From Nemertoderma westbladi (taxonomy: Eukaryota; Animalia; Xenacoelomorpha): a stretch of 64,000 nt of DNA. The stretch covers positions 1-64,000 of the forward strand of contig JAUCBJ010005935.1 of the NCBI GenBank assembly GCA_032718475.1, written 5' to 3'. The notes under the pieces were generated by a model. It ran no database searches. It saw only the letters and a program-made list of their open reading frames with translations, and was not told where the DNA came from. Positions 1,861 to 37,300 of the stretch are shown piece by piece (the stretch's first letter is position 1; each line of letters begins with the position of its first letter). The position numbers and the translations under genes were made by a program.

Positions 1861-1927
1861 CAGCGCAACCTAACCTAATCACTCCAATAAGGTTCACAGA
1901 CACATGCACCAACATTTAATGAGTATA

Positions 1928-4287: not shown

Positions 4288-4339
4288 AGTCACGCCCATA
4301 ATTCTATTGTAACTCCAGCTGTGAGCGCTAGTGGGAGCT

Positions 4340-4945: not shown

Positions 4946-4989
4946 AAACAAATTGATTCGTCTGCCATTCATTATGTGCGTATGGTTGC

Positions 4990-10300: not shown

Positions 10301-13300
10301 CCTAGCGGCAGACAGGGGAACTTTAAAGTTTGTCTGAATTTAGAATTTCTAAATAAACAATGCTTGTAGGTGTAGGTCACTCTTACCAAATTTCAAGAAG
10401 ATATATCAACCATACATAAAATATGTTCAAACAAAAATAATGCTTTATTAAAACTTTTATTACTTTAGTTTACTTAACTGTGGTAATTACATTGCAAGTC
10501 TTACAATTCATGTTACTATTCATGTCATTTTTTGAGAAAGTTTGACTGGCCCATTTGTTTCAAAATTGATTTATTAAATTAAATGAACGGGAAAAGGGCC
10601 ACCTTTACTATCATAAAGAATGAGATGATTTACATTAGGGCCACAAATATACATCTTTTACAGTGTCCCATTTCCATCCAAATTGATCTTACAAATAAAC
10701 TGAACTGTAAGAATGAAGAGAAATAAGATAGGGCCATTGAGTTATATAGGTACACTATACCTACATATCTCACTTTATAGATATATAAGTTGGCCCTTTC
10801 GCTCGTTTTTTCATCTTTATGTATGTATATTAAAATGGTATATGTAGGAACATATATACACAAGATATGTAGATATACTAATGGCCCTTTTTACTTCCAT
10901 TCTGTATTATATAGGTACATAATACCCTTAATTTCAAAGATACATATCTATGGCCCTTTAGGCCGAACGTACATATATATATATATATTATTTCTTAAAA
11001 TAGAGCATATAGTACTTATTACTTATTAATTCTTTATGATTAGGTACATTAAATTATTATTTTAATAATATTCGATAATATCAAATTAGATATTAAATTG
11101 TTATATCTTATCAGCTACAGAGACAAAAAGACAAATTATATAGAATTATATTCCCTAAATGCCGTGGATTTTCAAAATTTTATTTTATTCGAATTAACTT
11201 TGTAAAGATTGCTTTGAGTTCTCATTCGTATTTGTTCTATCATTTGAACGCCTATTGGTCAAGTGGTTCAGTAGCTCAGTCGGTAGAGCGTTGGAAATTA
11301 TAATAATAATAATAATAATATTTAATAATTTGTATAGCGCCAACATTACCGGTAGTATTCTATGGCGCTAATCAGAGTTAGAAAAGAAAAGAAAAGAAAA
11401 GTAATAAGCAGGTAATAAACAGGTGAGTCTTTAGTTTTCCTTTGAATGATGCCGTAGACTGGATATCACGTAGCGAAGCTGGTAGTTTGTTCCACAGCCG
11501 GGGCGCGCATACCTCGAACGCCCGCCACCCGAGAGTGTAGCACTGGAACCGTGGTTCGACGAGACTTACTGTGCTACAACTTCTAGTTTGGAGGCGATCG
11601 CGACTAACTTTATGGAGCATTTCGATTATATATTTGGGAGCGTGGCCCACCAAGGCCTTGTGCGTCATCAGCAGTCAAATTATATGTGTAGTAGGTATTG
11701 AGTTCGAATCCTAGTAAGTGCGAATTATTTTTTGTGCAGAATTTCAACTCATTTAAATTGACCGCTACAAATTAATTGCATTTGTCTGTACCAATGAGAC
11801 TGTAGTTATTTGATTGTAACCAATGTCGTGCAAGTTATACATTAGCTGGACCAATAGCTATCTTTAAAACCTTGTTAGAACCTATAGAACAATCGAGAAT
11901 TTTCTCGATTGATTGCGGCACAAATTTGGTATATAAAGGTGCGATTTGTTCATTAGTTATCTCATTACTCTAACCATATTCGTATCTCTGAGTTATCTAA
12001 TATTTGTTTATTCTGTCATTAGTATTCAGATTACATTTTGTATTATTATCTGCAATAAATTCAGAAATACTGCTATCTGCCTTTCTTTTCACCATGGATT
12101 CACTACGGTGAACAAACCTAAGGGACAGGATGGCCGGCTAGAGATCGGGCCGCAGCAATGAACGGGAACATCACAGGAATGTAGACGAGAGACAACCCGC
12201 AATACCATCTTGAGTTATTCGCCCATCGCCTGAAAGGTTAGACAGCGTTCGACGCCTTGCTACCCAAGTGTAAGACCAAAAGATCAAAAGGTAGAAGTAG
12301 TGACACGCTGTGAGCCTAAAATTACATCTTAGGGACTGTACTGTCTTGATTCAGGAAAACCACAGTAGACCTTCATATTCCTACGGGGTAGAGGGAAAGA
12401 GCAGGCAGATACTAGTACGCAGATAGGACGTAGGCACACCGGTACGAAGCATACAAATTGGTAGGGTGCAGCAAACTGTACGCCTAACTCTTGCTAAGTA
12501 CAGGTGTGTGTGCGACTATTTGTAGTACGACGGTGTCCATTGCATTAGAGCTTGTAGGCTAGGGGTTGCTGTGTTTTCACCTGAATTGGGATTGTGCCGT
12601 TCAGGCGGTAGGGCAGTTTACAGCTAGGCGCAAATAAATTGAGGCTATTAGGGATACTAACATCTACCGTGTCCCCGCCAACGCCCTAATAGGAAGTTAC
12701 CCGGACTACCTGGGTGACTAAAATTCTAGATAGGAGCCAGGATAGCTATTAGTAACTGTACGCCTACAGTAGTAAACTAACACATCTCTTCTTAGTATCA
12801 GGGACCTGGTACCTAAAATTGCCGAATTCTGGGCGTAGCATTAACCTTATGCCTGAATTTGAGTCCTGGAAATACGCAGGAGGGGAAGGAACCTTATCAT
12901 TCGTGAGTATTGGACCTACAAGTTGCAAAATTAGAATATTCGTAAAATACACACCGTACCCAGTAATTATATATGTGAAGGAGCAAAACTGTTTTTGACC
13001 GTTCAGAATTAACACACGCGCGTTAGAAATTATTTACACCTCAAAATATATAAAATTAACTTTGTCCGTACTGTGCTTTGCCCGCTAGTTAGACATCTCC
13101 AAATCTCTGCCTGTACCTAGCTAGCGTCTCTTCGCCCAACCATATAAATCACACCGCGGCAAAGTATACGAGCCCCTTAGTCCATCAGTGAGTCAGCCTG
13201 ATTTTAGGATTCGCTGCGCGGGATTTTGTTTCATCGAAGTTTGTCTGCTCGTAGACTGTTTTCTGCCTCACCGGTTATAAGAGATCGATACTGCAATATA

Positions 13301-16300
13301 TTCGCTTACTTAGAGTTTACTGTTTTGGTGAGAAGGTCGGATTTATGATTTGATTTACAAACTTTACAGTAAGATATTGCAGGTATTGTTGCCGTCTCTT
13401 CGTATAGTAGGAATATGTTTTACTGAACTACGGTTCGGTAGGACTAAAGTTATTTGAAAATTTTGTATTTTGAGGTAAAAATTTATATTTGATTAGCTAA
13501 GTGCTAATTTTTTGAAATAAAATTTGATTTGAACCGCGTGTAAAATATTTTTGGAATTGAATACCGGTGTTTAAAAAGGGTTTAAATACCATATTGTACC
13601 GGTACAAAATTTTCGTAAAGTAAAACCTAACTCTTTTGTTTTTTCAGGATTCAGAACTCATTTCTAGACTGTAACGGGAGCAAGACCGTGTTTAGCAAGT
13701 TTGGGAGATAGATAACTCAACAACTTTGGTTGGGAAAATCGCGCTTCGTCCGCAACGCTGGAAACGGAAAGGTTCACGTTCGGTTTGTATCTGGGAATCT
13801 GTTTTTCTGGAGAATTATTGGAGTGGGTGAGTTCGAAAGGTTGCATAAATAAGTTAGGCATTACCGTATTAGTTAAAATTATTGTGGGTTCCACTGTCTC
13901 AAGTATTTATGCATTCCGTATGATTTCTTTGTTCATTGCTGAATTAGTCCGTATTATTGTATTTAATTTACCTTTTGATAACGCATATCGTTATCCGATT
14001 TATTTGTTATAAAATTGGCCGCTAGGCTAATTTTATTATATACTTATTCCGTGACATTTATTTGCTGTAAAATTGGCCGTTTAGGCTAATTTTATCCATC
14101 TGCTATAAAATCGGCCGGTAGGCTAATTTTATATGACTGTAATTAGTACCGTTTAGATATAAAAACGGTAAGTTTGATACTTTGACACTCACTTTACTTG
14201 ACTTGCAACTACCGAAATGAGTGACAAACAAGACTATACGAAGAATACACCTACCGACTATGACTCATGTGACGGAGATAAGTCAGCAGAGGAAGAACAA
14301 CAGGGGAAGACTCGCGAGCCTACCGAACCTACACCGTGTGCGTCACCAGTACATCCAACGGGAGTACCGGATGCCGTAGTACGAGGCGACGGCAGGACCG
14401 AGGACTTTCTAACTGTTCCGCAACCTAGATATAGGGAAACGGAATTGGTAAGTTCAGCAGGAAGCACAGAAAGTGTGGTTAGAAGCGTCGGAGGATACAT
14501 GGCGCATATAACCAGGAGTATTGGAGAAGGCCAACGCATATTAGACGAGTTGACCGCTCCGATGTCTCGGTTCGAGTTCTACACTCTACAGGTGAGAGTA
14601 CAGAGTAAAGTATATAAGTCCGTAGATAACCTAATTGGTCTACAAGATCTAGCTAGACAGAGACAGGATATGGACACTCAGCTTAGAATCCTCGAGAAAC
14701 TAATGATCGCTAGAGAGAAACTGATTCAGTTTAAGTCGACGATTAGACAGATACAACAGGAACAAGCGGACCAGTTGTTAGGTGAGTCAGTTTCGGACGA
14801 ATTATTGCAACCCGAGGAAGAACAGGAACTGTACCGACTGGATGGACAATTGAAACACCTAACGGATCACTTACGCATGTGCGGCGAGGACGTCGGAGAT
14901 TGGGAAACCGTGCCGGAGGCTACGAGGGAAACTTCACTCGCACAAATCGAACCGGCACCGGGAACACTAGATCAATCACTGGTGAGTATTCGCAGCGAAA
15001 TTGGCGAGGTGAGTATGGCTACGTCAGAAATTGCTCGACAACAGCAGATCTACAGACAACAACAGGAGTGGGAGGAACAAACTCAATTACTAATGGCACA
15101 AGTAGCAGCAGAAGAAGAGAAACTACGCGTTGCGAATGTTGCGAGAATCTCTCATCTGCAAGAACAAGCTGAGTTGGAAGTAGCCGAAATGGAAAGGTTA
15201 GAGTTGGACATTGCACAACAAGCAGCAGCGGCCGAGTTAGCGCAACGAACGGCAGCGGCCGAGTTAGAGCGACAAGCGGCAGCGGCCGAGTTAGAGCGAC
15301 AAGCGGCAGCGGCAGCGGCAGCGTCCGAGTTAGAGCGACAAAGGTTAGCTTCAGAAGCGAGAACCGAAATGAAAAAACGGCAAATAAAGGCTCAATCAGC
15401 GATACGACAAGCGGAGTTCGAGGCGCAACAACAACAAACGGAACAACGCGAGAAAGAAGTTAAACTTCGTTTTGAACTCGAGAAGAAGGCGAGAGAATTA
15501 GCCAACGCCAAGGAAGATCTGGATCTACAAGCCCGCGATCGATCAATGAGATCTCGAGACGGACATGACTTGGACCAGATAGAGGTAAGACATCGCCAAA
15601 TTCAGGAACGGAAGAAGGAAGGAAGCGTAGGAGCACCCGGACGGGAACGACAATTAGTAAAGGACTTGTGTCAAAGATTCCCACAGGTAACTCATATGTT
15701 TGCACCGGTTACGACTAAGGAACCTGTTTCGATTGCGGGTAGTAGTAACATTTCTCCTATCCATGGTGCGACGGAACACAGGTTTGTTATTCCGGACGAG
15801 TTTACACCGCCAAGAGCAACGTCGTCGCCTATTCCGAAAGTCAAGGTAAGTAACCCACCGATTACAGATCGTAGTAGTTTGTTGACTGGACCTGCACTAC
15901 TGACGACTAAACAGGTGAGTCCACCGTCGACACCTAAACCCGTTACACACTACGCTTACCCAATGACGTTTCGACCTACAAGGCCAGTTGATTCAAATGC
16001 TGTCATTCGCCCACCGGTTCAGTTTACATCGCAATCTACGACTTCGAGGAAGACTTGTGAGCCTACCGAACAACGGAGAACAGTGGATACGCGACCGAAC
16101 CAGTTTACATCGCAATCTACGACTTCGAGGAAGACTTGTGAGCCTACCGAACAACGGAGAACAGTGGATACGCGACCGGTTCAGTTTACATCGCAATCTA
16201 CGACTTCGAGGAAGACTTGTGAGCCGAACAACGGAGATCAGTGGACGATGTTCCGAAACGAAACGTTAGAATTCGTACGACGCAACGGACGCGAGCACGT

Positions 16301-19300
16301 CGACCGCCATATCCAGATGATAGTAGTACTTCGAGCGAATCGGATTACCCGAAACGCGAGGTATTTAGAACAGGGGCGGCCGATGAATATAAACGCGAGC
16401 GTTCAGACAACTCCTTTGTAGACAATCCTCCACAGAATACACCAACACCGAAGGCGTTACAACCAACGGACGCAATAAGTACACAACAGTTCGCCGACAT
16501 CCTGCGACCAGTTGTTAACAAGTTGGCTCAGATCGAGGAACGTCTGGAGGAAGGTTACACCGACAGTTCGAGAAATTCCGAATTCGAACACAATAGACAC
16601 CCGAAGGAACCACAAAGACCGGTACCTTCAAAACATACATAGTATCAGGGAAAAGCGCCAAGAAGGGAGAACATCAACCAGGTTACCAACCAAGGACGCG
16701 AAACTCTGAACGTTGCCGAGGAGATAGCGAAATTCGCAGCGAGACAAGGATTGCCGGTACAACAACCACCGAAGTTTTCCGGTAGTTCAAAACACTGGCA
16801 CACATTCGTAGACTATATCGAATCTCAGATCGCCGTGTGCGCCTTTACATCACGGGAGAAGTTTAATTACCTGCTTCAAACGTTGTCAGGAGAACCTAAA
16901 CGTTTGGCAGAGACCTTCGTTGGTGTACCGGACGCCTTCGAACTAGCGTACGATCGTTTAACTTCGATATACGGAGGTACAGTCAGTATGGCCAGGTCAG
17001 TAATAGAGGAACTCTGTAAGGGAGGGGCTATCACAAAACCCGTCGACTTATTAAAACTGGCCGACGAGATAAAGAACGCTATCACTACTTTAAGATCCAT
17101 TGGACAACTTGATTACGGGAATACCCCTACAGTCCTATTAAAGATCATAGGACGACTCCACCATCGACTTCGTCGGGAGTGGAGAAAGATCGAATACCAG
17201 CGAGAAGAGCGGGGTGGATTCTTAAAACTAGAGGATGTGTACCTTTTGATATCCAGGGAAGCAGTTGTAGAGACTCGATCCAACTACACTGACCAGCACA
17301 TCGTAGCAGAAGGGATCACCTTGCCATCCTCCAACCGACAAAAACCCCAGACAACATCCACCAAGACGGCCACTTACGCCACACCGACGGAATCACGACA
17401 ATTCTCGGACGGTAGTAGGGTATCTGCGCCCATTGGGACGAAACAGACTAGACAACAACTCAGTACCGACTTCAGCGGCTGCCAATACTGCGAGCATTTA
17501 GGCAAGCGGTATATCGGTCACAAGTTGCGAGGTTGTCGACAGTTTCGCGAGTTGAACTCGGAAGAACGACGGCTGCAAATACGACCATTGGACTCTTGTT
17601 GGCGGTGTACGCGACACGGACACGTCCGTAAAGATTGCCCAAATACCGACACTTGTCCATCCTGTGGACGCAACCACGACGGTCTGCTCCACACAGACAG
17701 CCACACGCCGACAAAACGCTTCGCCAGGGAACACCCGGAAGCAGCAGCGAGATGTGATGCGGCCTACAAAAGGCGAGAATCGAAAACGACTCCAACCTTC
17801 GTGACCCATATTGAGGATTGCTTCTCAGAACAATCCGGATCGTCGGACGAAGAGTCAGAAGACGACGACGTATATTCGGATGGATATGAACAGCCATCGA
17901 TCGCGCTTCTGACTACTGACCAACTGAAGGGATTCAGTGTAATTCCGATTAAGGTTACTGGCACAAAGGGGAGTAAGAGAATCTACGCGATTCTAGATTC
18001 AGCCTCATCTCACAGCTACGTGGATGAAAAGATAGCTGATGTAGTGACGGATCTCCGACAAGGTAAGCACGTCAGTTATACCGTAAGTAGTATGCACGGA
18101 CAGCGTGCAATACCAGTGACACGAGTCAAGTTAAACTTAGACTCTCTTCTTCCGAAATCGCAACACAGCGAGAGGGAGAGGTCTTTGTTACCCTTCAAGG
18201 ATTTGACCTTTGCGGCCACAAAAGACTTTAGTAACCTACTAGGTCCGGTCCCAGAACAATCCTTGGAGGACCGTAAGTATTTCAGACACCTTGGTGTACC
18301 TGAATGTCCTGTCAATTATAGATCGGTAGCCATGCTGATCGGGACAGACCAATTCAACCTACACCAAGTGTGGGAAACCAGACCATCGGCAGTTGTAGCG
18401 GGAAACGCATACGCCTGCAGAACGCCGATAGGATGGTATACTCGAGCGCCTGTGCGCACACTGGACATAAGTGACGAGGAAGACGATGTACAAAGTACAT
18501 GTAGTTTATTAAATACAAATTCAATTCATTCCTTCTCACACGACGTGAACCGTACTACCTTACAGACAAAACATAACAGACGTGTAACTAGTATGATAAG
18601 TCACAAGGAGCAGCTAATCCACCAGCGGAGTTTAGAACTTGGGGAGAAGACGAGTCAGCTAGAGATTCCATCGACGACAGATGATAACGCCGGAAGGCTT
18701 GCGAGTCTACCTACCCCAATGACATCAACGAGGCCCGTCGATATCGATGATGACGCGTTGAGAAATCATCAAATGGAACAAGCTGTACTGGACAAAGAAT
18801 TAACGGAGAAGACTATCAGGTGGTTAGAACAAGATACAGCTGAACCTGGTAGCTACGAACCTTGTATGTCGGAACAGGAGAAACAATCTCTGAAGATCAT
18901 GGAAGATACTATCCGACAGACGGAGGACGGACATTACGAGGTGGGGATGTTATGGCGTAGCCAAAGTCCTAAACTTATAAACAACTACCCACTAGCGTTA
19001 AGACGTCTACACTCAATCCGACAACGTCTATTAAAGGACGAGAAAGCCCATCTGCAGTACAACACTCAGATGGAGACGTATTTGACTAAGGGATACGCTA
19101 TCCGAATGACTAACCCGGAGCGAGTGACTGACCAGACGTATTACTTGCCACATCACTACGTGAGACACCCCGACAAACCAGACAAAGTACGCGTAGTCAA
19201 CGACTGTGCGGCTCTGTTTGAGGGAATGTCCCTCAATAGCGAGTTGATGGATGGACCAAACATGAATAATTATCTTATGGGGGTGATTATGCGCTTCCGT

Positions 19301-22300
19301 CAGCGTCAAGTAGCTTTTACTTGCGACGTTGAAGCGATGTTTCACCAAGTGAGAGCGTTAGAGTGAGACAGAGACAGTTTGAGGTTCCTCTGGTACCCGG
19401 AAGGAGACTTAAGTCTACCACCGGCGACTTACCAAATGCAAGTTCGCGTTTTCGGTGCCAGAGACAGCCCAAACTGCACAATGTATGCCCTAAAACAAGC
19501 CGCTAGAGATCAGAAACACCTATATGACCCAGAGATAGTTAGGATTGTGGAACGTGACTTTTACGTCGACGACGGATTACAGAGTTGCGACACAGTAGAA
19601 CGTGCTACAACAGTAGCACATCAATTACGGGACTGCTTAGCGGGCGGAGGTTTTAACCTCACCAAATTCGCCTCAAACAGTGCCGAATTAGTAGACTCAT
19701 TCGGAACGACTGAGCGTGGAGGTGGTGACATAGACCTAGAGTTCGAACCACTACCGACGACCAAGGTGTTGGGGCTCTTTTGGGACCCAAACACGGACAA
19801 CTTCCGAGTGAAGGTGAGACTGGACAGTCAAGAGAACACACTGACAAAGAGATCATGCTTGTCAAAATTGAGCCGATTGTTCGATCCGTTAGGATTCATC
19901 AGTCCAGTGATACTGCAAGCCCGCATTTATATGCGCAGTATTTGGAAGGATGGACTAACATGGGACGAGCCGATCTCATCAGACCAAGTGGACTTATGGA
20001 AGACCTGGGAGGCGGAATTATCTTCGCTAGAGGATTATTCCATACCCAGAGTTTACTTTCCATTACAAAGTACATTTCCTGACAACTTGGAACTACACTG
20101 TTTTTCTGACGCCAGTGACAACGGTTTTGGTGTGGCAGCGTACTTGCGCAGACAAGTAGACTCAGAAGCATTCGATGTTTCGCTCATTACTTCTAAGGCA
20201 AAAACAATGCCTACTAAGTATATGACGACACCACGAGCTGAGCTACAAGCCGCAACACTATCAACCACCATCGTAAACCTTATACAGACAGAACTACAGT
20301 GTTATTTCTTCGCTAGAGGATTATTCCATACCCAGAGTTTACTTTCCATTACAAAGTACATTTCCTGACAACTTGGAACTACACTGTTTTTCTGACGCCA
20401 GTGACAACGGTTTTGGTGTGGCAGCGTACTTGCGCAGACAAGTAGACTCAGAAGCATTCGATGTTTCGCTCATTACTTCTAAGGCAAAAACAATGCCTAC
20501 TAAGTATATGACGACACCACGAGCTGAGCTACAAGCCGCAACACTATCAACCACCATCGTAAACCTTATACAGACAGAACTACAGTCAAGTTTACAGATA
20601 TTTTATTGGACTGACGCGACGTTGGTTTTATTTTACATAAACAACGACACACTTGAATTCAAGACATTCGTAGCTAACCGTCGCGCAGAAATTCTAGACC
20701 GTTCAATAAAAGAGGATTGGCGACATTGTCCCGGACCACAAAACCCAGCTGATATTGCGTCGCGAGGAATGATGCCTGAGGAATTCTGTAAACCGGAGAA
20801 CAAAGAATTTTGGCAACACGGACCACAATTCTTACAAGGTTCAACACTACATTGGCCGCCACTATACGACAACAAGTCTAACACTATCCCTAAGGACGCG
20901 GAAATCAAGAAACCAAAAAAGGGGAAGGCAAAGAAAAAGACAACGGCGGCAAAACTCAAGAAAAAACCGAAGGCGAAATGGAAAGATATAACTTCAAAGG
21001 TCAAGAGAGGAAGACTTGCGAGCCTTTCTACACCAGACATATCGCCAGACGGTCAACCAGACACGTTACTGGACGGTCAATCAGACATTCTACCAGACAT
21101 TAGTAATGTATTGACTAACAGTAAAGCCGCAGTTTCCCTATTGGAGCGGCCTTGTATTGACAAACTACCAATTTTGACACACTTGAGCAACCATAAGCAC
21201 GGTGAAACCTCATGTATTACAGATGTGGGTAGTACCTACGCTAATGTAAATACAGGTGTTACTTTGCGCTCAAGAGACATACCGAACTTGCAACCTATGG
21301 TGAAACCTGGGATTAATGTCGGCAGAAAATTAAGTTTACCGAAACCTGCTGACCCCATAGAGTTCAAACCACCACCATTAACGATCGACTTACAAAGTAC
21401 CGACAATCAAGGTAAGAAGACGAAGAAGGACAAATTACTTGTAGACCCGGACGGATCAACAGTCAACAAGGGAATACTTACCGGCGGACCCGTGGGCCCT
21501 TCTAGTAATTCAAAACCTTCCAAAATCTCCATTGACTTACCTGATGACGTCACAAATACTCACGTCGACCGGATTGTAAACTTAACAGACTCTTGGTCAA
21601 ACGCTTGCCGAAAGTTAGCGTGGATTGTACGTTTTGTACAATACGTTAAAGGCAAACGTGACTTTACACGTCGACTTACATTGGCTGAGATTGACAGGTG
21701 TGAGATTAAATTAATTCGCCATTACCAACTGCGATATTTCGCGCGCGAATTCACATCTATAAATCAAGGTCAACCAATCAAGTCGTCACCAATACTGAGT
21801 TGGAGTCCGATTATTTATAATGGCTTAATTTGTCATAAATCTCGGCTTCAAAACATTGACTTTAACACAAACTTTAGGTACCCAATAATAATACCGCAAC
21901 ATCACGAACTACAACGTGCAATGATACTGGACGCACATTTACATCTGAAACACGCTGGAAGACACCACTGTCTTTCCTACTCACGTACAAGATTTGTATT
22001 AATTAGACCCAGTAAAGCGTTAAGTTCAGTGACACGTACGTGTATTATTTGTAAAAAGGTACATTCTAGAATCGGTACCCAAGAAATGAGTGAACTACCA
22101 CAAGCACGACTTCAAGCATTCAGACCACCTTTTACAGAGACTGGAATTGATTGCTTTGGTCCCATACATACGAAACGTGGACGTATACTAGTAAAACGCT
22201 GGGGACTGATTTTCACATGTATGTCCAGTAGGGCAGTTCACATTGAACGTGTGATGGATCTTTCCACCAACGCGTTTATACTAGCACTGCGGCGATTTAT

Positions 22301-25300
22301 CGCTAGACGCGGACTAGTGAAATGCTTGTACTCAGACCAAGGGACAAACTTTGTTGGTGCTCGGAATGAGATTGCTAGAGCCTTTAAGAAATTAGATCAT
22401 GATCAAATCTCGAACGAACTACAACCTCATAAGATTGTTTGGAAGTTTAATCCTCCAGATAGTCCATGGAGAGGCGGAGTCTGGGAGAGATTGATTAGAT
22501 CTATCAAGACAGCCATGGCAAAGGTCATTCCAGTAAACCACATACTGACAGACGACCAACTGACAACATTGTTTGTTGAAATCGAGGCAATACTAAATAC
22601 TAGACCAATAGTATTAGTACCCGATGACAAACAATCTCAGTTCGCTTTAACACCTGCACACCTGCTTATGCAGGCACCGACTACTTTGACGCCGATTTCT
22701 ATTCCAATTGAAGGCGATAGCTACGGTAGAAAGGCGTGGAAAATCACGCAACTACTGGCTAACAAATTCTGGGAAATATGGCAAAACCATTATTTGCCCT
22801 CTATTTCTACCAGAACAACTTGGTACAATAACACCCGCGCATTAAAGCCGGGAGATCACGTGCTGTTAGCAGAAGTGAATCTAAAAAGACGCTTCTGGAT
22901 AACAGGTGTAATTTTAGCCACACATCCATCTATGGATGGAGTGACAACAACTGTGACGGTACGGACAATTGACGGTCGTACAGTAGACAGACCGACTCAA
23001 CGTCTCGTACTTCTTGAAGAGACTCGTAACGAGTCTGGAGACTACAAATCTCCACCTAATACTAGTAAATAATTAGGAGTTTACAAATAGATTTCCACGT
23101 ACCTGTACACCGTAGTAAGGACAGCGGTAGAATTCCATTGTCTTTTTATGTGAACATTGAGGGTAGTACCCTTATGTGTCACATAGGAGCGGGATTTGTA
23201 GGTATAAGAAATTGAATTCTACTTGGAACTCACAATATTGAGACATTTTCGAAATTTTAGACAATCCATTTGGATTTGAAAAATTTTAAAATTTTCTCCA
23301 GTGAATAGATTTCAGGGTACAGTCGGGTGGAACTTAAAATTAGAGAAACAAGAGAGGAAGACTTGCGAGCCTTTCTTAAAATTTTAATTAAATTTTACAC
23401 GGTCTTGTTTCAATAAGTTACGTCAATAAATAGACTCCCCTATATTTATTACTAATTCTTGACTGCTTATTTTCTGATAATAGTTTGGGATCAAAAGGTG
23501 AGTATTTTAGACTCACAGCCAGTTTAGCCCAAATCCGTTTTTATTTCGGCAAAAAATTTTAGATAAGAAGCAGCGTGTCATTAAAGAAACCCTAGATCTT
23601 AGGCTATGGGTAGGAGGTTAGAGCGTTGTCGAGCCCAAAGGGCAGACGAAAACTCTCACGTCTCCTCACAACTAACTACAAACTCTGTTGTATTCCCTCT
23701 AGTAGTAATGATTATGTAACTACACCCCTAATTATGGAGAAAGGGATACAAGGAGAGCCGAGATGGGGATATGATATCCAAGAGGAAGCAGCAGCGCCAT
23801 TCGAAAGATTTGGAGCCAAGGACTACACTATATTTGGTATAAAGGAATTATCAGAAAGTACAGCGAAACTCGCAAAGACTAAATATGACAACCCTTCTAC
23901 AACTCCGACGCTCAGTGTAATGCCTTTACTCGAGCAGGATTTAGTATATTTCGAGACGTCTATCTTCGCTGTGCGGGATCTCTTATCGAAAGACCATCTA
24001 TGTTTACATTGTTACCCTATGAAGGAGAACGTATCGTGGAGATTACGGATGAATCACGGCAGACGCGCGCGCCTATCGGTCACCTTGGTGATGATTTCGA
24101 AGTAACTACTACGATCACTGACGATCCTTTAGAGGAACTTATTGAGATAGAAAGGAACCTCCCGAAGAAATCTCAGACGGAGATTCGACAACTTGAAGCA
24201 ACAGATGCTATAGTTTGTATACAACCTTCAGAAACCTACCAACCCATAGATCCAGATGATTACGATTATAGTGTGGGCGGAAGCGCTCGACCGATTGGAG
24301 ATCTTATATACGAACGAGTGTGGTACCCTGCCAATACGATGTGTAGTAAATGTGGCGTCGCTGGACATCATATGACAAAGTGCAGTGGAAAGCACATTAC
24401 TACGACTCAGCTAATCTGTGGATGGTGTGGGGATCAAGGGTCTCATACCTTTTATACTTGCTGGAGATTTATGGCTCAATGTACTTATTGCAATATAAAA
24501 GGGCATCGAGCATCTGAATGCCAACTAAGAGACATACCTTATGAACACGAATCTGTAAAACTCGTGAGGAAATTATTTGATGAGTGGGAAGATTTAGCCG
24601 ACGAACATGTATCGGCACAAAGAAGACGGTTTCCGATGAGAGCGCATCTTGGATTTTGGGCGGTAAATCCTCAAACGATGATGTCGGAAGGATACATCTC
24701 CGCTAGGCCCCAATATGACGAACTTATCGAGGTAGTCGATATTTTGCCCCACGACAGCGGATTTCGAGTAGTGCGCGAGTATCTACTACAGATTCACCCG
24801 GATAACAAAAACACGTGGAATTTTCAGAAAGTCGTTAACCGCATTACGTATGGTGAATTCGATCGTTTCCGAACTGAAAAGCGGAACAAAGGAGCTTGGT
24901 TAACCGTCGCATGGGCGTACCGAGCCGCGTTTTACCATAAACGTATACGAGCGAGCGTATTCGTGGAAGAAAAGGTCCTAGAGGCGACAAATATACCAGC
25001 CACTCCGGTTGCGCCGTCTGCACGTCACCCTCGGGAGGACGGACAGGGTAGGATCATACGGGTCCAGAAAGTGGGCCAACAATTAAAGAAAATTATTAAT
25101 ATAGAAGAACGCAAGGGAGTTGAGCCGACCATTCGAGTTACTCGGGATACGGTATCGCTTCCAAGAGAACCAGTAGGAGGATCGGGACATACACCAGCTG
25201 ATCAACAGGGGGCGCAAGCTACTCTTGGGTCTGCGTCGTCCGCTTCTCGCGCGTTCCCAGACGTTCTACCAACTGTAGTGACAACTGATCGGTCACGAGG

Positions 25301-28300
25301 AATCGGTCGAGGTTTTGGGATGCCAAATAGACGAATTTGCGAGGAAATAGTCGCACCGTCTCTCAACGTCCCAAGTAAACCAGTGACTCGTCCCATTAGT
25401 CCCATATCGCGAGCAAAGTCACCTGTGCGCAGTTTTCGAGGACGCGGCAGGGCTCGATCAACTAAGCGATAAAAGGGAGGGCAAGGGTGGACGGAAGACT
25501 CGTGAGCCTTTCTTGTGAATTTGTGATTTATTTGAATTTATATTTATATTTGTGTTTATTCCGAACTTATGCAATTTGTATTGTTCCGAATTTATGAAAT
25601 TTAGAAATAAGAACTCATATTTAGTAAGATTTATAGTTAGTAAGAATTTATATTTGCAAGATTTATATTTTGTAAGAATTTATATTTTATATTTGTGATT
25701 ATTCCGAACTTATGCAATTTATATTATTCCGAACTTATGCAATTTATATTGTTCCGAATATTATGCAATTTACATTTTATAGGCAGTATTACAGTGAAAT
25801 AGAAAGTAAGAGTAGATGGAAGACTCGTGGGCCTTTCTTATAGTTTTATTTGTAAAGTGTTATATTTTGTATTTAGAAAGTTTTATAGTCAGAAAGTTTT
25901 GTGCTTAGAAAGACTCATATTTGTAATTATTCCAAACTTATGCAATCTACATTTAGGTACGAAAGTATTTGTAATTACTTGAATTTATGCAATATTTGAG
26001 ATGCAATAGTAGATGGAAGACTCGCGAGCCTTTCTTATCGTTTTCATTTATTTGTATTTATAATTGTTTGAATTTATGCAATATTGAGATGCAATAGATT
26101 TATATTGGTGAATTTAATTTAGATTTATATTGTACTTACTTAGTAAAGCCTTAAATACGTAAAGTTTGAATTTGTAATTATTTTTGTATCGAATCATTAC
26201 GTAGAAAGGAAGTATTATTTGAAATTTAATTTGTAAATATGTAAGTACGCCCTAAGTATTCTATAGTTTGATTGATTATTGGTGAAAACCGTATATTTTA
26301 TGCACGATAATATCCTGTTTTCATGGAGCGGTATAGAATTATATTCCCTAAATGCCGTGGATTTTCAAAATTTTATTTTATTCGAATTAACTTTGTAAAG
26401 ATTGCTTTGAGTTCTCATTCGTATTTGTTCTATCATTTGAACGCCTATTGGTCAAGTGGTTCAGTAGCTCAGTCGGTAGAGCGTTGGAAATTATATGTGT
26501 AGTAGGTATTGAGTTCGAATCCTAGTAAGTGCGAATTATTTTTTGTGCAGAATTTCAACTCATTTAAATTGACCGCTACAAATTAATTGCATTTGTCTGT
26601 ACCAATGAGACTGTAGTTATTTGATTGTAACCAATGTCGTGCAAGTTATACATTAGCTGGACCAATAGCTATCTTTAAAACCTTGTTAGAACCTATAGAA
26701 CAATCGAGAATTTTCTCGATTGATTGCGGCACAAATTTGGTATATAAAGGTGCGATTTGTTCATTAGTTATCTCATTACTCTAACCATATTCGTATCTCT
26801 GAGTTATCTAATATTTGTTTATTCTGTCATTAGTATTCAGATTACATTTTGTATTATTATCTGCAATAAATTCAGAAATACTGCTATCTGCCTTTCTTTT
26901 CACCATGGATTCACTACGGTGAACAAACCTAAGGGACAGGATGGCCGGCTAGAGATCGGGCCGCAGCAATGAACGGGAACATCACAGGAATGTAGACGAG
27001 AGACAACCCGCAATACCATCTTGAGTTATTCGCCCATCGCCTGAAAGGTTAGACAGCGTTCGACGCCTTGCTACCCAAGTGTAAGACCAAAAGATCAAAA
27101 GGTAGAAGTAGTGACACGCTGTGAGCCTAAAATTACATCTTAGGGACTGTACTGTCTTGATTCAGGAAAACCACAGTAGACCTTCATATTCCTACGGGGT
27201 AGAGGGAAAGAGCAGGCAGATACTAGTACGCAGATAGGACGTAGGCACACCGGTACGAAGCATACAAATTGGTACGGTGCAGCAAACTGTACGCCTAACT
27301 CTTGCTAAGTACAGGTGTGTGTGCGACTATTTGTAGTACGACGGTGTCCATTGCATTAGAGCTTGTAGGCTAGGGGTTGCTGTGTTTTTACCTGAATTGG
27401 GATTGTGCCGTTCAGGCGGTAGGGCAGTTTACAGCTAGGCGCAAATAAATTGAGGCTATTAGGGATACTAACATCTACCGTGTCCCCGCCAACGCCCTAA
27501 TAGGAAGTTACCCGGACTACCTGGGTGACTAAAATTCTAGATAGGAGCCAGGATAGCTATTAGTAACTGTACGCCTACAGTAGTAAACTAACACATCTCT
27601 TCTTAGTATCAGGGACCTGGTACCTAAAATTGCCGAATTCTGGGCGTAGCATTAACCTTATGCCTGAATTTGAGTCCTGGAAATACGCAAGAGGGGAAGG
27701 AACCTTATCATTCGTGAGTATTGGACCTACAAGTTGCAAAATTAGAATATTCGTAAAATACACACCGTACCCAGTAATTATATATGTGAAGGAGCAAAAC
27801 TGTTTTTGACCGTTCAGAATTAACACACGCGCGTTAGAAATTATTTACACCTCAAAATATATAAAATTAACTTTGTCCGTACTGTGCTTTGCCCGCTAGT
27901 TAGACATCTCCAAATCTCTGCCTGTACCTAGCTAGCGTCTCTTCGCCCAACCATATAAATCACACCGCGGCAAAGTATACGAGCCCCTTAGTCCGTCAGT
28001 GAGTCAGCCTGATTTTAGGATTCGCTGCGCGGGATTTTGTTTCATCGAAGTTTGTCTGCTCGTAGACTGTTTTCTGCCTCACCGGTTATAAGAGATCGAT
28101 ACTGCAATATATTCGCTTACTTAGAGTTTACTGTTTTGGTGAGAAGGTCGGATTTATGATTTGATTTACAAACTTTACAGTAAGATATTGCAGGTATTGT
28201 TGCCGTCTCTTCGTATAAATTACATAACAAAAAATAATGACAATAATATTTATAATGTAATAATAAAATATATTAATAATGCAGGAACATGTTATCATAA

Positions 28301-31300
28301 AAATATTCAAAGAAATGTTAGAAAAGCTAAAAATGAATCCTTAGAAAAATAGCTCAAATGTTCAAAATACAGGAAATTAGAATTAAAATGAAATACGAAT
28401 TGAAAATAATTAGTTTAAGTCATCAAAAAAATACACCTTCTTTAGCAGCTGATGTGCATGTAAATATTGAACATTCATTGCAATAAACCACATGTGTAAC
28501 AGATTCTGAGTTCGTACACATTTAGCGATTCTGTATAATTTGTTTCAGTCTACACAGCACGGCTAAAAATATTTAATTTATATAAATATCATTGGAGAAA
28601 CAAACCTGCTAGTTGTAGCGTTCAATAACTTCCCAAGGTTCGCCATTCTTCCAAAAACTACATCATCGTACATTGTATCTAATTGGTTGACTAGTATATC
28701 GGTTGACATCTCCATGGCAACAGGGTCCCCGGTAATCACTAAATCAACGAGGTAATCCGAATCCAAAACGAATACCTAAAACAATAAAAATCAATATGCG
28801 ATAAAAGGCAACAGAATAATTATAAATATTATTTAGTAACTAATTTAATAATTTGAATAATGTTTAATTAGATAGGCCTATTCAAAGACTAATATTTCCT
28901 AACTAATATAACTTACCAGTAATTTGCTTGTGGCACGCCTATCCAATGGAATGCCAGGCTTTGACACGGTTACCATAGTTTCGTATGACTGACCAACAGG
29001 CAGCGATTGATTGTAACCAGTTCTGACTACCCCATCCACATCAACAGTAAGGATTGGATCGTTTACAGAGTAGAGTAACAATGCTGACAATCCATCTGGG
29101 TCGTGTGCCGTTAACTGTAATAAGTAAAGTGTATGCTATATTTAACGAAATTGAAGGTCTATGTTGTGTATACATATATGCACATATATGCGATTCTTAA
29201 TATGATTTTCAAAATATACAGTTCCTCCTGCTTATTGTTTTCTAATTGTTTAAACACAATCGTGATTTAGAAAACTATAATATATCCCGACAATATTTAA
29301 CAATATTTACCTGTAATATTGGTGTATTCGGAGGTGATTGGAATAGCTGTGCTCCGATAATGATCGTTTCAGTAAAATACGGAGCTTCATCATTCTCATT
29401 AATCACGTCGATTATTAAGTTAATCTTGTCCCCAAGAAGTCTGCCATTATCATCTTCATACACCGGAATCTGTTAAGGAACCAATCAAGGATAGTAACAA
29501 ATAAGTAGAGAGTTATTGTGTAGAAAATTATAGACCAGCAGAAATCTGTAGCATAATAGGATAGAATAGCAATGTAAACGAAATGAAAAATAAGTTAAAT
29601 TCATATTTATAAACAGCATTGCTTCTTCCAGTCCTGACAAAACCAACACAATAAGAAGATATTTATCCTCCTCATGATTTCTTTGTTACTGTTTATGGTT
29701 TGAAAATGTCACCACTAATATAGCATCACAGCTACTTTCCCGTAATTGATGGCAGCGCCGCCGGTAGATATGAGTAACATGCTTTTCTTTCAGCGGTTGC
29801 TATCACTGACCCATACGATATCATGGTGTGCCCATACAATGTGGTCTTCCTTGCTTTGGATGTGAAGCGATTTCGCAGCACATGTAGTACAATATCAACC
29901 TGTGACATGCCCAGCCAATACGGCGCCGTACATAAATGTGCCGCGAAATGCAATGATGTGTTGTGATATGCGTTACCACGATATAAAATTATTTGCTGTA
30001 GAATGACTTACAATGCGGTACTATACCGCGCGATACAGACTGCATGGGTTCCCTTTCAATGTTTCATACAATGCCGGCGCTGACAAGTTATTAAAATGAT
30101 ATCCATTACATGCTATGCTGCGGCTTATTATGGTCTGCCATTATCTGCTGTGCTATGCCACTGCTACCATGAAAACCAATAAATCACCAAAACACACCAA
30201 GCCAACTCATGTATTGACGTGTGGCACTGTGGAGTGTTATGATGCGCCACTCCATTGTCATGTCATACCCCATGATATTTTGTGATGAGTGTCAACCCGT
30301 AATCTCCAACGCCCTTTGATTCACCAGCCCTACTCTGTCATTCTAGGGCTATGTGGAGCATTGTAAACGTGCAAATTTCTTGACTCGCAGCTACATTATT
30401 AATTACACCGCTACCCCAACCCCACAACATAGCTATGTCACCAATGAATGCAGAACACCGTATAAAAAGCAATTAGTAAGTGGGTTGGGTAGCTATGTCA
30501 TTTCTCAAACATGAGAACCGATTATGTAAAAGACACCAATCAAAAAATAACACAAATTTTTTTAGTTATTATTTTCAGATCGTGGATAAGCAATCGATGT
30601 AAAATTATGTATAAAAATGAAATAGATAGATAGCAAATTTTAGGAATTTTAGGAATCAATATATTATATTTAAATAAATATAAATTATTAATTATCACCA
30701 TGTACATACATCTCTACGACGCCGTCTTCTCTCATTATCGGAGTCGGTGGGCTCCTGAGGAAGGAATATCTGTATGAAGTATTGTTTGCGGCCTTCGTAA
30801 TCGACGCCTCTGACCAAGAAGAACTTGTTTCCGATGATCGCCCAGACACCACCGGCGTCCCCGGACAGTATCTGGATGTCGCCACTTCCCCCAAACACCG
30901 GTAGGTTGGTTCCTTCCAACTGGAAGGGAGGGGTTGCCAGCTCACTCACTGTAGCTTGGCTATATAAATAAAATATATAAATATATTGGTAGATTGTTTG
31001 TTGTAGCTTCTCTATTATACATGTAAAACATTTAAATATGTTTTTAGTTTTATTCACAGTAGGCCAAAAATATATAAAAAAACTCCAGCCAAAATCTATT
31101 TATACGACAAACCAAAGCTCATATTCCTTCCTATCCTATAAAAGCTCCTCCTATTCGATACATTCTACCCGAAGGTAGGGATAGGAGCTACTCTTATACC
31201 TAGTTTACTCCCAGTAATTCAACTGGTCCTCAATTAATCGACCCTCTGGAAGGAAGGCTGAGTAAACCCTGGCGAACCGACAATACAATATAAATACTAA

Positions 31301-34300: not shown

Positions 34301-37300
34301 AAGGTCATATTTAACTATCTTTTACTTATTGTGTACATATAAATTATTAAAAGTTAGGTTTTTTAACCAGGTCGGCTTTATCTTGTTAAATAAATTAAAG
34401 CAAACAATTAATATTGAACTATTTTTGAGAGGAAAATATAGTTTAGGGAGTGAAAATAAGACACCACAAAGTCAAAGAGTTAAATAGGTAATATTAAATA
34501 AAGGCCCACAGAGAATGAGAATTGGGTTCTTTCCTTTATATTCTATATTACCTTGAGGCATCTGGTATGTTGCAGTCCTGGTCGTAGACTGGAAGTATCT
34601 GATCGATGGACACTGAGGTCTGCGCGAAGTTCATCTTAAGTATTTCTTCTAGGGCAGATTGATGGTCGACCACATCAGTTGGTGTCGCCCCGGACAACAC
34701 GAACTGGAATCTATCCGAGTCAGTAACCACCAAAATCTATTGGATAAATATAAACACAGTAAACAATCTATAAAGTATCGATGTATAATGTACAAAATGT
34801 ATAATATGGATACAAAATTCTTCCGATATGCTGGTAGCAATGCGGCAGCTTAGCATAGTTGGTGCACCTTAACAGATATAGGGGATAGCAGCAATGCGCG
34901 TCAGTAGTGTAAGACAGCCCATCACTAAGAGAACAGGAAGAAAAATGTGCAAAGTACCAACAGTTTATGGTGAGACATAAATAATGCTTACCCAAACATC
35001 AGCAGTGTCCAACTTCTCCGCCTTTTCATAAAGATCCACATTAAAGTTATACGTCTTTCCAGAATTGTTTTCCAAAGAAGATACTAGATTTATATTACCA
35101 TTTACAGTGTCCAAACTGAAGTCACCGGATAGAGTCGATCCATCAGCTAACTTGTAGCTGACATCGGCATTCGCCAGTGGCACCTAAAACGGTATTAAGT
35201 ACAGGTAGACACATTGAAATTGTCTTTCTAAATCGCAGACATTTTTTTACAACTAATGCTATCCATCGCAACAGCTAACCGAAACCCCATAGAACTCTCC
35301 AATAAATCCTATGAATATTATTAATTAAAGACAAATAAATATAAATTCAATAAAATCTTGTGACGACTTCCACTCAACTAAACGCATCCCTGGATAAAAA
35401 AAAGCTATATGTTATAGGCTATATGGCTATACCAGGATTTCACTTTTCGGTCGACTTTTTATTGGAATTTTATCTATGGAGATTTTTCATTTTTTTTTAA
35501 TTTATCTTTATTAAGTGTTTTATAGCGCTTATTTCTATCTTATAACCTGTACATATACTAATTCGTTTATTGTTTTGGTTAGATTCAGCCTTTCTGTAAC
35601 CTGTTTTTTTTCAACGGAAAGTCTGGTATTCTTCACACATGGGCCGAAGCAAAGCCACATACATGTCTGAAAGCTTAAATCGAATTAAAGCCAAGTCTAT
35701 TGTTCACATATGTACGGTGGCTAAATGTGGCCAATTTAATTAATTTTAAAAATGGGAAATATAAAAAGAAATTAATGAAATATAATTCCTTAAAACAGAA
35801 ATTAATCAAATTTAATTCAGCCAGAAACAGAAATTAATCAAATATAATTCAACCCAAAACAGGAATTAATCAAATATAATTCAACCCAAAACAGGAATTA
35901 ATCAAATATAATTCAAACATTTTGGAGGGAAATTTAAAATACTGTCTCAGTGCAGTGCAGTAAATTGTCGTTTCCTTTTCAGTCTATCAGTGCAGTACTG
36001 CAGTAACGGTTGCCCGTAGCTCTGTAAGCTTAGTTCTGTGGTTAGTTGTTAATCTTTTAATCACTACAGCACTACTGACTACCGATCTACGTAATGATGG
36101 TAGTACAAAATGTCATGATGTCATGGGTGATAGGGAGTTGTGGCGGCGCAATTTTGTCGACAAGCCCGCACAGCATTCTTAAAAATGCAGCTGCAATGCA
36201 GCATGCAGATACTAGTAGTACACCTGCAGTACAGTTCTATATACAACTACTGAACTAACTAATCCTACGGAATTACCGGTCTTTCTGAAGATTGGTAAGG
36301 TAAAGCTGCCGGATTGCCCCGTAGTCAGGTCGTATCGGTCTGTTGGTAGTCAGTAGTGATTAAAAGATTAACAACTAACCACAGAACTAAGCTTACAGAG
36401 CTACGGGCAACCGTTACTGCAGTACTGCACTGATAGACTGAAAAGGAAACGACAATTTGCTGCACTGCACTGAGACAGTATTTTAAATTTCCCTCCAAAA
36501 TGTTTGAATTATATTTGATTAATTCCTGTTTTGGGTTGAATTATATTTGATTAATTCCTGTTTTGGGTTGAATTATATTTTATTAATTTCTGTTTCTGGT
36601 TGAATTATATTTGATTAATTTCTGTTTCTGGTTAATTATATTTGATTAATTCCTGTTTTGGGTTGAATTATATTTGATTAATTTCTGTTTCTGGTTGAAT
36701 TATATTTGATTAATTTCTGTTTTAAGGAATTATATTTCATTAATTTCCTTTTATATTTCCCATTTTAAAATTAATTAAATTGGCCACATTCAGCCACCGT
36801 ACATATGGCTGACAGGTTTATAGAAGTTTCTCACCTGAACGCTGCCAATATTAGTATAGACTGGTGTATTACTAGCGATTCCGAATAGGTATGGAAATAG
36901 CGACTTCGCGAAGTTCGGCGTGTCATTCACAAGAACAACCGTGCCAATAGATCTGGAGAAACCTGGAAAATGCAAGAAAACATTAAAATGAATTAGTTAA
37001 TTACATAATTTGTAATTTTATAAATAATTAGTTAACCAATGGCCTATTGGTTTGGGAAAGCTTATAAATTATTACCTGTATTGGTATCCATGATAAAGTT
37101 GAGAACATAGTTAGAGGCAACATCGTAATCCAATGACTTTATCAAAGTGATTCGACCGGTGCTATCAACATTGAATGTGTCGCTAACAGGCTCAATACGG
37201 TATGAAACTATAGCCGGGTTGGTGGGTAGCTGACCAATTACAGTTCCTGGGGTCTCATTCTCATCAACTGATATCTCGGGAGTCCTGCAATAATGATAAA

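Follow-up and report, generated by a model that had tools for sequence, protein, structure and literature searches.

A conserved third gene with zinc knuckles, other than an envelope gene, in a 17-kb BEL/Pao-type retrotransposon of Nemertoderma westbladi

Retrotransposons of the Belpaoviridae are 4.2-10 kb long and have LTRs of 0.2-1.2 kb, a polypurine tract of about 10 nt and an 18-nt primer-binding site (PBS) complementary to tRNA-Arg or tRNA-Gly; the ICTV profile names gag, pol and env as their only genes and calls their replication poorly understood (PMC8742986). In the excerpt of PMC10309623, the accessory protein CERV of the C. elegans element Cer1 is made from a spliced mRNA, carries a Cys-rich finger and is required for the export of unspliced RNA. 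The excerpt of PMC6317226 defines self-priming by at least 10 nt of the 5' LTR being complementary to the sequence that starts 0-5 nt past the LTR.

Here we describe a 64,000-nt stretch of the N. westbladi genome (contig JAUCBJ010005935.1, positions 1 to 64,000; the window), which contains a young 17-kb LTR retrotransposon of the BEL/Pao type. Its third gene, ORF3, is conserved, belongs to the element itself and is not an envelope gene.

The host element and its predicted self-primer

Self-BLAST and the termini delimit a 5' LTR (11139-13406, + strand), which contains a 374-nt insertion (about 11303-11676), and a 3' LTR of 1886 nt (26332-28217, +). The LTR termini are TATA...TATA, not TG...CA, and a 5-bp target-site duplication (11134-11138 and 28218-28222) flanks the element, whose total length is 17.1 kb. 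With 4 mismatches in 1730 nt, the two LTRs are 99.8% identical; the family is young and very abundant.

The gag-pol region (14217-23072, +), recognised by its Pfam domains as being of the BEL/Pao type, is broken in this copy by a frame change near 16.3 kb, by stops at 16642 and 19366 and by a 284-bp duplication at about 20017-20586; the integrase ends with a stop at 23072. It contains DUF1759, Peptidase_A17, Integrase_H2C2 and DUF5641, and the RT has the YVDD motif. A Gag with capsid and nucleocapsid (NC) domains, DUF1759 and three knuckles of its own, a Pol with the order PR-RT-RH-IN and the Pao-type Pfam domains are shared with Belpaoviridae, as is, with their env-bearing members, the presence of a third gene after pol and before the 3' LTR (PMC8742986; PMC3118150, in its accessible part). 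The integrase is only about 32-41% identical to its best database relatives, and PF05380 and PF18701 occur in nearly all of its matches (best 120 of 1439). The element is classed as BEL/Pao-type because of these proteins, but it is not a textbook member of the group: it is 17 kb long, has 1.9-kb LTRs with TATA...TATA termini, only a short purine-rich run before 26332 and a self-complementary PBS instead of a tRNA PBS, and its third gene is not env-like. ARAGORN found no tRNA gene, and Rfam gave 0 matches across 11000-28400.

A tRNA-type PBS is not seen at 13407, and the sequence following the LTR does not begin with TGG. Instead, the 11 nt that directly follow the LTR (13407-13417, +) are an exact complement of an LTR segment at 12374-12384 (+), about 1 kb away. 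This match at offset 0 was equalled in only 13 of 3000 shuffled LTRs, and the self-complementary PBS proposed in the first-pass annotation is thus real. As the thermodynamic duplex is only marginally the best one in the LTR (-26.4 vs -25.4 kcal/mol), it is the exact complement that we take as evidence for a self-primer. The complement agrees with the definition of Tf1/Sushi-type self-priming, which the excerpted source places in chromoviruses and TAR Copia elements (PMC6317226), whereas the ICTV profile gives BEL/Pao elements tRNA priming (PMC8742986). A self-priming BEL/Pao element was not found in the open-access literature searched; the predicted self-primer would extend tRNA-free priming to BEL/Pao.

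Structure and conservation of ORF3

ORF3 consists of two overlapping + strand frames, located after the stop of integrase (23072) and before the 3' LTR (26332). The upstream frame, counted from ATG 23734, spans 23734-24105, and the downstream frame, 23889-25472, is open for 527 codons from stop to stop; at this composition, such a length has a chance of about 2e-13 per start. The ORF3 ATG is preceded by two short ATG frames (23708 and 23714). An N-terminal part of 52 codons (23734-23889, +) is followed by the main part (23890-25472, +), in which an acidic linker, the knuckles, a middle domain and a basic tail succeed one another. The three CCHC zinc knuckles (24342-24521, +) have the patterns C-x2-C-x4-H-x4-C (24342-24383), C-x2-C-x5-H-x4-C (24417-24461) and C-x2-C-x4-H-x4-C (24480-24521), and the Pfam zf-CCHC match to ORF3, with E=0.0044 only, fails the Pfam cut-off. 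The middle region (24534-24983, +) is a conserved segment of about 150 aa without a recognised fold. The Arg/Gly- and Ser/Pro-rich tail (25296-25472, +) has a net charge of +13 and 4 RG pairs in the last 58 aa, and the protein has three short basic clusters. Neither a signal peptide nor a C-terminal TM anchor nor any other hydrophobic segment was found in the 52 + 527 codons present in this copy (19-residue Kyte-Doolittle maxima of 0.78 and 1.02). Hence the third ORF, its three knuckles, its basic RG tail and its lack of a signal peptide and TM segment, all of which had been noticed at first pass, are borne out for the parts present. Judging from its CCHC and Arg/Gly motifs, the protein probably binds RNA.

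At 23889/23890 the frame shifts. Previously, this had been ascribed to a 1-bp lesion near 23888, the repair of which would give ~580 codons. The contigs of other copies, however, have loose ends on both sides of this position (23889-23890, +) in run X1, one of two flat DNA runs (X1 and X3), and in run X4, which is labelled 'DNA?', has its library off record and is taken as RNA by inference. In X4, 255 nt of loose end lie behind 23889 (1 contig) and a median of 191 nt before 23890 (2 contigs); in X1, loose ends occur in 9 contigs behind 23889 and in 4 before 23890. Such long loose ends mean that a longer stretch, kept by other copies, is missing here: this copy lost roughly 200 nt or more, and ~580 codons is consequently too short for the gene of the family. 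In the family, the 5' part also occurs as several short alleles. The upstream frame is rejected as coding in the overlap, where 2 of 2 variants (23890-24105) alter its amino acid.

A comparison across copies shows ORF3 to be under strong purifying selection throughout the length present. The counts rest on 40 of 51 variant places listed in contigs of other copies, and 32 of the 39 listed ORF3 variants are silent, compared with 11.7 expected (null maximum 23 in 5000 draws), which corresponds to a rough pN/pS of 0.09; with near-fixed differences left out, the count is 28 of 33. In the main part, 27 of 34 variants are silent in its own frame, and 4 and 1 of the 34 in the other two. All five listed variants of the N-terminal part are silent, as are 10 of 11 in 24531-24990, which covers the middle region, and 10 of 11 in 24991-25472. 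The summed depth of the ORF3 bins (41,856-51,059 in X1 and 35,033-52,605 in X3) lies within the gag-pol range, and since the DNA-run depth over ORF3 equals that over pol, the gene is not a one-off capture. A single-copy origin, a nested fragment and an absence of purifying selection, each of which would have spoken against a selected, non-env gene encoded by the element itself, were all looked for and none was found. This particular copy is dead for both ORF3 and gag-pol and hence would depend on other copies.

Searches for relatives returned little. None of 7995 candidates was a homologue of near length at E<=0.01, and none of 359 shorter proteins matched residues 1-380 at E<=0.1. Among 1.84 billion representatives there were three matches, two of which are generic CCHC regions of retroelement-like proteins (P0001, E=5e-8; P0002, E=5e-5); the third, a Listeria repeat protein, was judged spurious. 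Metagenome and viral contigs contained no locus for ORF3, for the integrase or for the 16-nt motif described below. The two matches in PDB sequences (E=1.3 and 5.8) are not significant, and the best ESM Atlas score, 0.87 to fungal DUF8363/CCHC clusters, is of low recognition and serves as a lead only. The middle region had no match in Pfam or PDB and no usable one in the ESM Atlas. AlphaFold single-sequence models were unusable (mean pLDDT 33 and 37), and Foldseek with the second of these unusable models gave no match at E<=0.001. An origin of the knuckles by duplication of the element's own NC was rejected, the best E-value against its Gag being 0.10. In the open-access literature searched, we found no case of a BEL/Pao element whose third gene has CCHC knuckles and is not env.

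Spliced expression

The first-pass annotation had proposed that ORF3 is expressed from a spliced subgenomic mRNA with its donor GT at 14168, its acceptor AG at 23701-23702 and its start at ATG 23734, all of which are present in the sequence. One contig of run X4 (depth 211; short side 29 nt) joins 13825 to 23702 with GT..AG at cut +1, whereas this joint occurs 0 times in X1, X3 and X5. The donor used, GG|GTGAGT (13824-13832, +), has its exon end at 13826 and its GT at 13827-13828. Of the proposed junction 14167^23703, therefore, the 23703 side stood and the donor side gave way to 13826 (15 of 57 joints listed). The candidate at 14168 (14165-14173, +) is a consensus match only; the internal region contains 9 such G|GTRAGT sites. 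No joint from it is among the 15 of 57 joints listed, so that it may still act as a donor but is rejected as a demonstrated one. The acceptor, with its branch point, pyrimidine tract and AG (23671-23702, +), is the sole match to the branch-point/pyrimidine/YAG pattern in 13407-26331, and the X4 depth jumps from 172 to 668 at 23703, where X1 is flat. Run X5, of low depth, contains unspliced pieces only and was left aside.

Spliced subgenomic expression is thus supported by one GT..AG joint in a run of inferred RNA, and ORF3 is likely translated from the RNA spliced at 13826^23703. As the donor lies before gag and the acceptor after pol, the primary transcript may keep or lose a 9.9-kb intron that contains all of gag-pol.

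A dispersed motif, possible functions and known systems

A 16-nt motif occurs 10 times in the element (14305-26030, all on the + strand), where 0 copies are expected (100 shuffles), and 0 times in the rest of the window. Seven copies are inside the intron (14305, 16048, 16129, 16210, 18692, 21009 and 23356) and three are in the 3' UTR common to both RNAs (25493, 25818 and 26015), with none within ORF3. Eight of the copies are independent, three being in a tandem repeat. As the copies occupy two codon phases, are confined to one strand and number 10 against 0 expected, the motif is a nucleotide-level signal. It is quasi-palindromic, and its variable positions are the C/T of two CpG sites. The dispersed hairpins of the earlier annotation hold as a repeated motif, but the hairpin itself is unsupported: no pair is changed on both sides, and the fold, which is weak, is no better than in shuffles. 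According to the excerpt of PMC5035970, RSV nucleocapsid knuckles bind a UGCG loop, which the motif centre YGYG resembles. The ORF3 protein may act on the motif or the self-primer, and so may the knuckles of the element's own Gag.

We tentatively favour, at somewhat short of an even chance, the reading of ORF3 as a Rev/CERV-like regulator of unspliced RNA that recognises the motif. The primary transcript would either retain or shed the intron, and its removal would bring ATG 23734 near the 5' leader. The triple CCHC array and Arg/Gly tail, to judge from the motifs, would bind single-stranded nucleic acid, with the ten + strand sites, seven of them intronic, as the putative target. Protein loaded on these sites could protect the intron-containing RNA from splicing, nuclear retention or decay, and the rescued RNA would then serve as gag-pol mRNA and genome. 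Selection, a spliced joint at the predicted acceptor, the motif count and the CERV precedent speak for this reading. Against it, NES-like matches in the protein are at chance level (2 vs 2.4 in shuffles), the motif hairpin is weak and shows no compensatory changes, three of ten motifs are in the 3' UTR common to both RNAs, where a strict Rev-response element would not be expected, Gag's own knuckles could read the motif, and the splice comes from a single contig with a 29-nt short side in one run of inferred RNA.

It is unlikely, if still a serious contender, that the ORF3 protein is instead a cytoplasmic NC-like RNA chaperone or packaging helper made apart from Gag, which would anneal the self-primer (12374-12384 with 13407-13417) or condense the long RNA at the motifs. 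Knuckles with a basic tail, as in ORF3, are the classic make-up of a retroviral NC chaperone. In addition, there is a real complement for the self-primer, and the RNA to be packaged is that of a 17-kb element in a family of 4.2-10 kb (PMC8742986). Gag already has three knuckles, however, those of ORF3 are unlike them, and a chaperone leaves the conserved middle region unexplained. A further point against this reading is that Tf1 self-primes without a known third ORF.

Rather less probable is a VANC-like, sequence-specific anti-silencing factor that would recognise the motif in DNA or nascent RNA and keep the copies of the family free of host silencing. A motif found many times in the element and nowhere else in the window matches the VANC signature as excerpted from PMC6719617; its C/T variation at CpG sites, the unsupported hairpin and the abundance and youth of the family fit as well. 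All 10 motifs (8 independent) are on one strand, however, which favours RNA over DNA as the target, and the LTR promoter is without a copy. Furthermore, CCHC knuckles are mostly binders of single strands.

We consider it improbable that the protein is directed at host RNAs or host defence, e.g. as a general suppressor of small-RNA silencing, with the motif being unrelated. Orphan status under selection would fit a conflict gene, and the ESM Atlas lead points to cellular fungal CCHC proteins, but the selection seen is purifying everywhere and gives no hint of rapid amino-acid change, and the searches run revealed no host homologue. It is very improbable that ORF3 is an env-like or cell-to-cell transmission protein that has diverged strongly: position and spliced expression are as for env (PMC8742986; PMC7264820, in part), but the 52 + 527 codons present in this copy, to which the search for a signal peptide and TM segment applies, contain neither although they include the C-terminus, where an env anchor would sit, and the cysteines form CCHC knuckles of the intracellular kind. 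Finally, a functionless passenger (nested gag fragment or captured host gene), to which the CCHC regions of P0001 and P0002 as sole database matches and the short 5' alleles might point, is largely refuted by the pN/pS of about 0.09, the dedicated acceptor with its joint and the family-wide presence.

Returning to the Rev/CERV-like reading, the element may, as a doubtful further step, represent a 'complex' BEL/Pao lineage, in which a 17-kb self-priming element would have its own Rev-like circuit, independent of retroviruses and Cer1, with a triple-CCHC protein from a spliced RNA and ten short response elements spread over coding and non-coding sequence. That a non-env gene with nucleic-acid-binding motifs is selected and spliced here means that BEL/Pao, too, evolves accessory genes. 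With the ten-copy motif as a candidate target for its protein, the long-standing question of how LTR retrotransposons retain and export an unspliced genome although their splice sites work becomes directly testable, as do the roles of their orphan extra ORFs.

Known extra ORFs in plants (eORF-3'F of SIRE, Athila/Tat) belong to Copia or Gypsy elements and often have a TM segment, and the excerpts of PMC7264820 and PMC6317226 offer no example with a CCHC array. VANC21 and VANC6 of VANDAL resemble ORF3 in combining an accessory gene with a short high-copy motif inside the element, but they belong to a plant DNA transposon and act on DNA methylation, with no homology shown (PMC6719617, excerpt). 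Like HIV-1 Rev, ORF3 has a spliced message and an Arg-rich stretch, and its candidate cis elements are mostly in the intron (PMC10309623, excerpt); it is much larger, however, with an NES not above chance and no homology, and where Rev has one large structured element, ORF3 would have 16-nt motifs scattered along the element. CERV, as described in the same excerpt (PMC10309623), resembles ORF3 in being an accessory product of an LTR retrotransposon that is translated from a spliced mRNA. Its Cys-rich finger is a putative RNA-binding one, it is not similar to known retroviral proteins, and its element, too, has to retain an unspliced RNA although its splice sites function. CERV is encoded by a five-exon mRNA that has sequence in common with Gag, and its finger is of the C4 type; ORF3 stands as a gene of its own 3' of pol, and its protein combines three CCHC knuckles with an RG tail. 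Compared by description, the export role is demonstrated for CERV and conjectural for ORF3; a Rev-like ORF3 would mean that this logic arose independently once more, in addition to its origins in retroviruses and Cer1.

ORF3 and the copy in the window

ORF3, the third open reading frame, is carried on the + strand by an LTR retrotransposon at 11139-28217, which has a clean 5-bp target duplication on both flanks and LTRs with 4 mismatches over 1730 aligned positions. Its internal frames match Pfam DUF1759, Peptidase_A17, Integrase_H2C2 and DUF5641, and its integrase region matches 1439 long proteins (E<=1e-30), the 120 listed being BEL/Pao-type at about 32-41% identity. By its proteins the element is therefore of BEL/Pao type, and sequence comparison indicates that it is without a close relative in the databases. 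Gag-pol of the window copy is interrupted at several places.

Two overlapping frames lie between the integrase stop at 23072 and the 3' LTR: one opens at ATG 23734, the other spans 527 codons at 23889-25472. The latter encodes an acidic stretch, three CCHC knuckles (24342-24521, + strand), a charge-neutral region of ~150 aa and a basic RG-rich tail; the first-pass annotation was right about both the knuckles and the tail. These knuckles are no duplicate of those in the element's own Gag (best E=0.10). Sequence searches with ORF3 gave nothing or generic CCHC matches only, an Atlas search yielded a lead that fell short of the threshold and no match to the middle region, and two structure models were unusable.

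Contigs of other copies from public sequencing runs diverge from the window sequence at both sides of 23889/23890. Among the loose ends listed (12 of 70), those of run X4 extend 255 nt behind 23889 (one contig) and have a median length of 191 nt before 23890 (two contigs), and DNA run X1 has 9 and 4 such contigs on the two sides. At least about 200 nt are therefore missing from the window copy, and the 1-bp lesion near 23888 and the length of ~580 codons proposed earlier are both wrong. Further short alleles join 23879->23919 (X1, X4), 23890->24031 (DNA run X3) and 25362->25434 (X4), and the only small indel with a share of at least 10% is at 23725, upstream of ATG 23734. The breakpoints of three or more distinct short alleles fall within about 150 nt of each other in the 5' part of ORF3 (23879-24031), which could mean common ancestry of these alleles or a site prone to deletion. 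By our arithmetic, the upstream frame stays open as far as the stop at 24103-24105 in all of these 5' alleles.

The first-pass annotation had made its reading depend on purifying selection, and this was found. Of 51 variant places in 23640-25500, 40 were listed and 39 were used, the one at 23727 being dropped as it lies upstream of ATG 23734. Silent variants number 32 of 39. When changes of the same types were placed at random 5000 times, silent ones averaged 11.7 and never exceeded 23; the rough pN/pS is 0.09. Without six near-fixed differences the count is 28/33; reading the other two frames instead gives 4/34 and 1/34. Even if all 11 unlisted places were protein-changing, 32/50 would be silent, still far above chance. 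By region, silent variants make up 5/5 in the N-terminal piece, 3/4 in the knuckles, 10/11 in the middle region and 10/11 in the tail, whereas the acidic part gives a weaker signal (4/8). The summed depth over ORF3 in X1 and X3 is within the gag-pol range, depth not being equal to copy number. ORF3 clearly belongs to the regular content of an abundant element family.

Probable splicing of the ORF3 message

A spliced form of the ORF3 RNA was observed once. The joint 13825->23702 reads GT..AG at cut +1, corresponding to an intron at 13827-23702, and comes from one X4 contig of one study (depth 211) with a short side of 29 nt, a class of joint that can be artefactual; there were zero such joints in X1, X3 and X5. 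Because it matches the predicted acceptor exactly and has a consensus donor, it is very probably a real splice. The acceptor of this joint is the one predicted in the first-pass annotation (AG 23701-23702), and its donor is GG|GTGAGT at 13827, 390 nt upstream of the gag ATG. The donor proposed there, GT at 14168, may be used as well, though it is absent from the joints listed (15 of 57).

X4 has no library record and its label "DNA?" is a guess. We infer that it is poly(A) RNA, since its depth ranges from 50 to 12,927 along the element, rising 3', whereas that of X1 and X3 varies no more than about fourfold; since a second depth peak stops next to an A-rich tract near 20910-20960; and since depth jumps at 23703 from 172 to 668 with no such change in X1. 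The acceptor is also crossed by an X4 contig that is unspliced and about as deep (201), so both forms exist. ATG 23734 is preceded by two tiny upstream frames (ATG 23708 and 23714), so ribosomes would have to reach it by leaky scanning or re-initiation. The long leader may hold a further intron, as suggested by a strong acceptor with a pyrimidine tract at about 13648 (13630-13650) and a donor-like site at 12903 (12900-12908); the joints listed included none for it.

The dispersed motif, a candidate self-primer and other features

A 16-nt motif has 10 copies, all within the element and on the + strand, whereas 100 shuffles gave 0. The count is partly circular, as the pattern was derived from these copies, but the motif's core of 11 invariant columns is far beyond chance. 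The copies occupy two codon phases of gag-pol and also non-coding DNA, so the signal lies at the nucleotide level. The intron holds seven of them and the 3' UTR three; ORF3 has none. The candidate hairpin has six pairs closing a YGYG loop; with one pair mostly mismatched and no compensatory changes across the motif copies, it is unproven. Its loop is similar to UGCG, a loop recognised by the nucleocapsid knuckles of RSV but found in the same paper to be dispensable for Gag specificity (PMC5035970).

The 11 nt directly after the 5' LTR (13407-13417) are the exact complement of 12374-12384, a match shared by 13 of 3000 shuffled LTRs. This agrees with the self-priming criterion of PMC6317226 and makes the pair a candidate Tf1-like self-primer in a BEL/Pao-type element. 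With such a primer, transcription would begin near 12374 and U5 would be several hundred nt long. By eye, an initiator-like sequence is seen at about 12373-12379, and AATAAA at 12054 and 12633 lies on either side of the predicted start.

The LTR termini are TATA...TATA (11139-11142, 13403-13406, 26332-26335 and 28214-28217) instead of the usual TG...CA, and the purine tract upstream of the 3' LTR is weak. A tRNA-like stretch in the upstream part of the LTR (26455-26535), with Pol III A-box and B-box lookalikes by eye, was not called by ARAGORN or Rfam. The 5' LTR holds a split copy of it, within which sits a 374-nt insertion (11303-11676) that shows an 8-nt duplication, ends in (TAA)n, resembles a SINE in reverse orientation and recurs at other places in X1 and X3 contigs. 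Gag has an unusually long N-terminus with coiled-coil-like repeats, and a long, low-complexity lysine-rich insert between RNase H and integrase (20880-21560) bears one motif copy. Elsewhere in the window, a host repeat array on the - strand (45613-51111 and 56872-64000; units of 399-411 nt, open for 1832 codons) codes for a 133-aa unit that combines a Thr/Pro-rich linker with a domain cadherin-like by eye, its Pfam matches looking spurious. Long inverted repeats at 35707-36807 (275 nt at 99%) resemble a foldback or MITE-type element.

Role of ORF3 and comparison with known systems

ORF3 encodes a soluble-looking zinc-knuckle protein, is under selection, occurs throughout the family and has its own acceptor; that this protein binds nucleic acid, and what it targets, we infer. 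If the donor before gag and the acceptor after pol both work, the element must still deliver RNA that retains the 9.9-kb intron. In Cer1, CERV is made from a spliced message, carries a Cys-rich finger and is required for export (PMC10309623). By analogy, the ORF3 protein would act on unspliced RNA in a Rev-like circuit, as CERV does, and would likely load at the dispersed motif. We hold this reading tentatively: nuclear export signal (NES) matches are at or below chance, three motif copies are present on spliced and unspliced RNAs alike, and Gag could read the motif instead.

That the knuckle protein is an NC-like chaperone is possible, if doubtful. An anti-silencing factor analogous to VANC (PMC6719617) is somewhat less probable, and a suppressor directed at the host less probable again. 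An env-like protein is very unlikely: no 19-residue hydropathy window of ORF3 exceeds 1.02, so the parts present are unlike env, and the non-env reading of the first-pass annotation holds for them. Since ORF3 is neither confined to a single copy nor a nested fragment and is under purifying selection, a mere passenger is hardly credible.

Searches of an open-access literature library found neither a BEL/Pao element with a non-env CCHC third gene nor a self-priming one. Accessory genes are known in LTR elements, among them CERV (PMC10309623) and extra ORFs of plants (PMC7264820, PMC6317226), and in retroviruses and some Gypsy clades (PMC2774666). For BEL/Pao, env is the only extra gene mentioned in the sources consulted, among them the ICTV profile (PMC8742986), and the present element departs from that profile in length (17 kb vs 4.2-10 kb), LTR size and primer.
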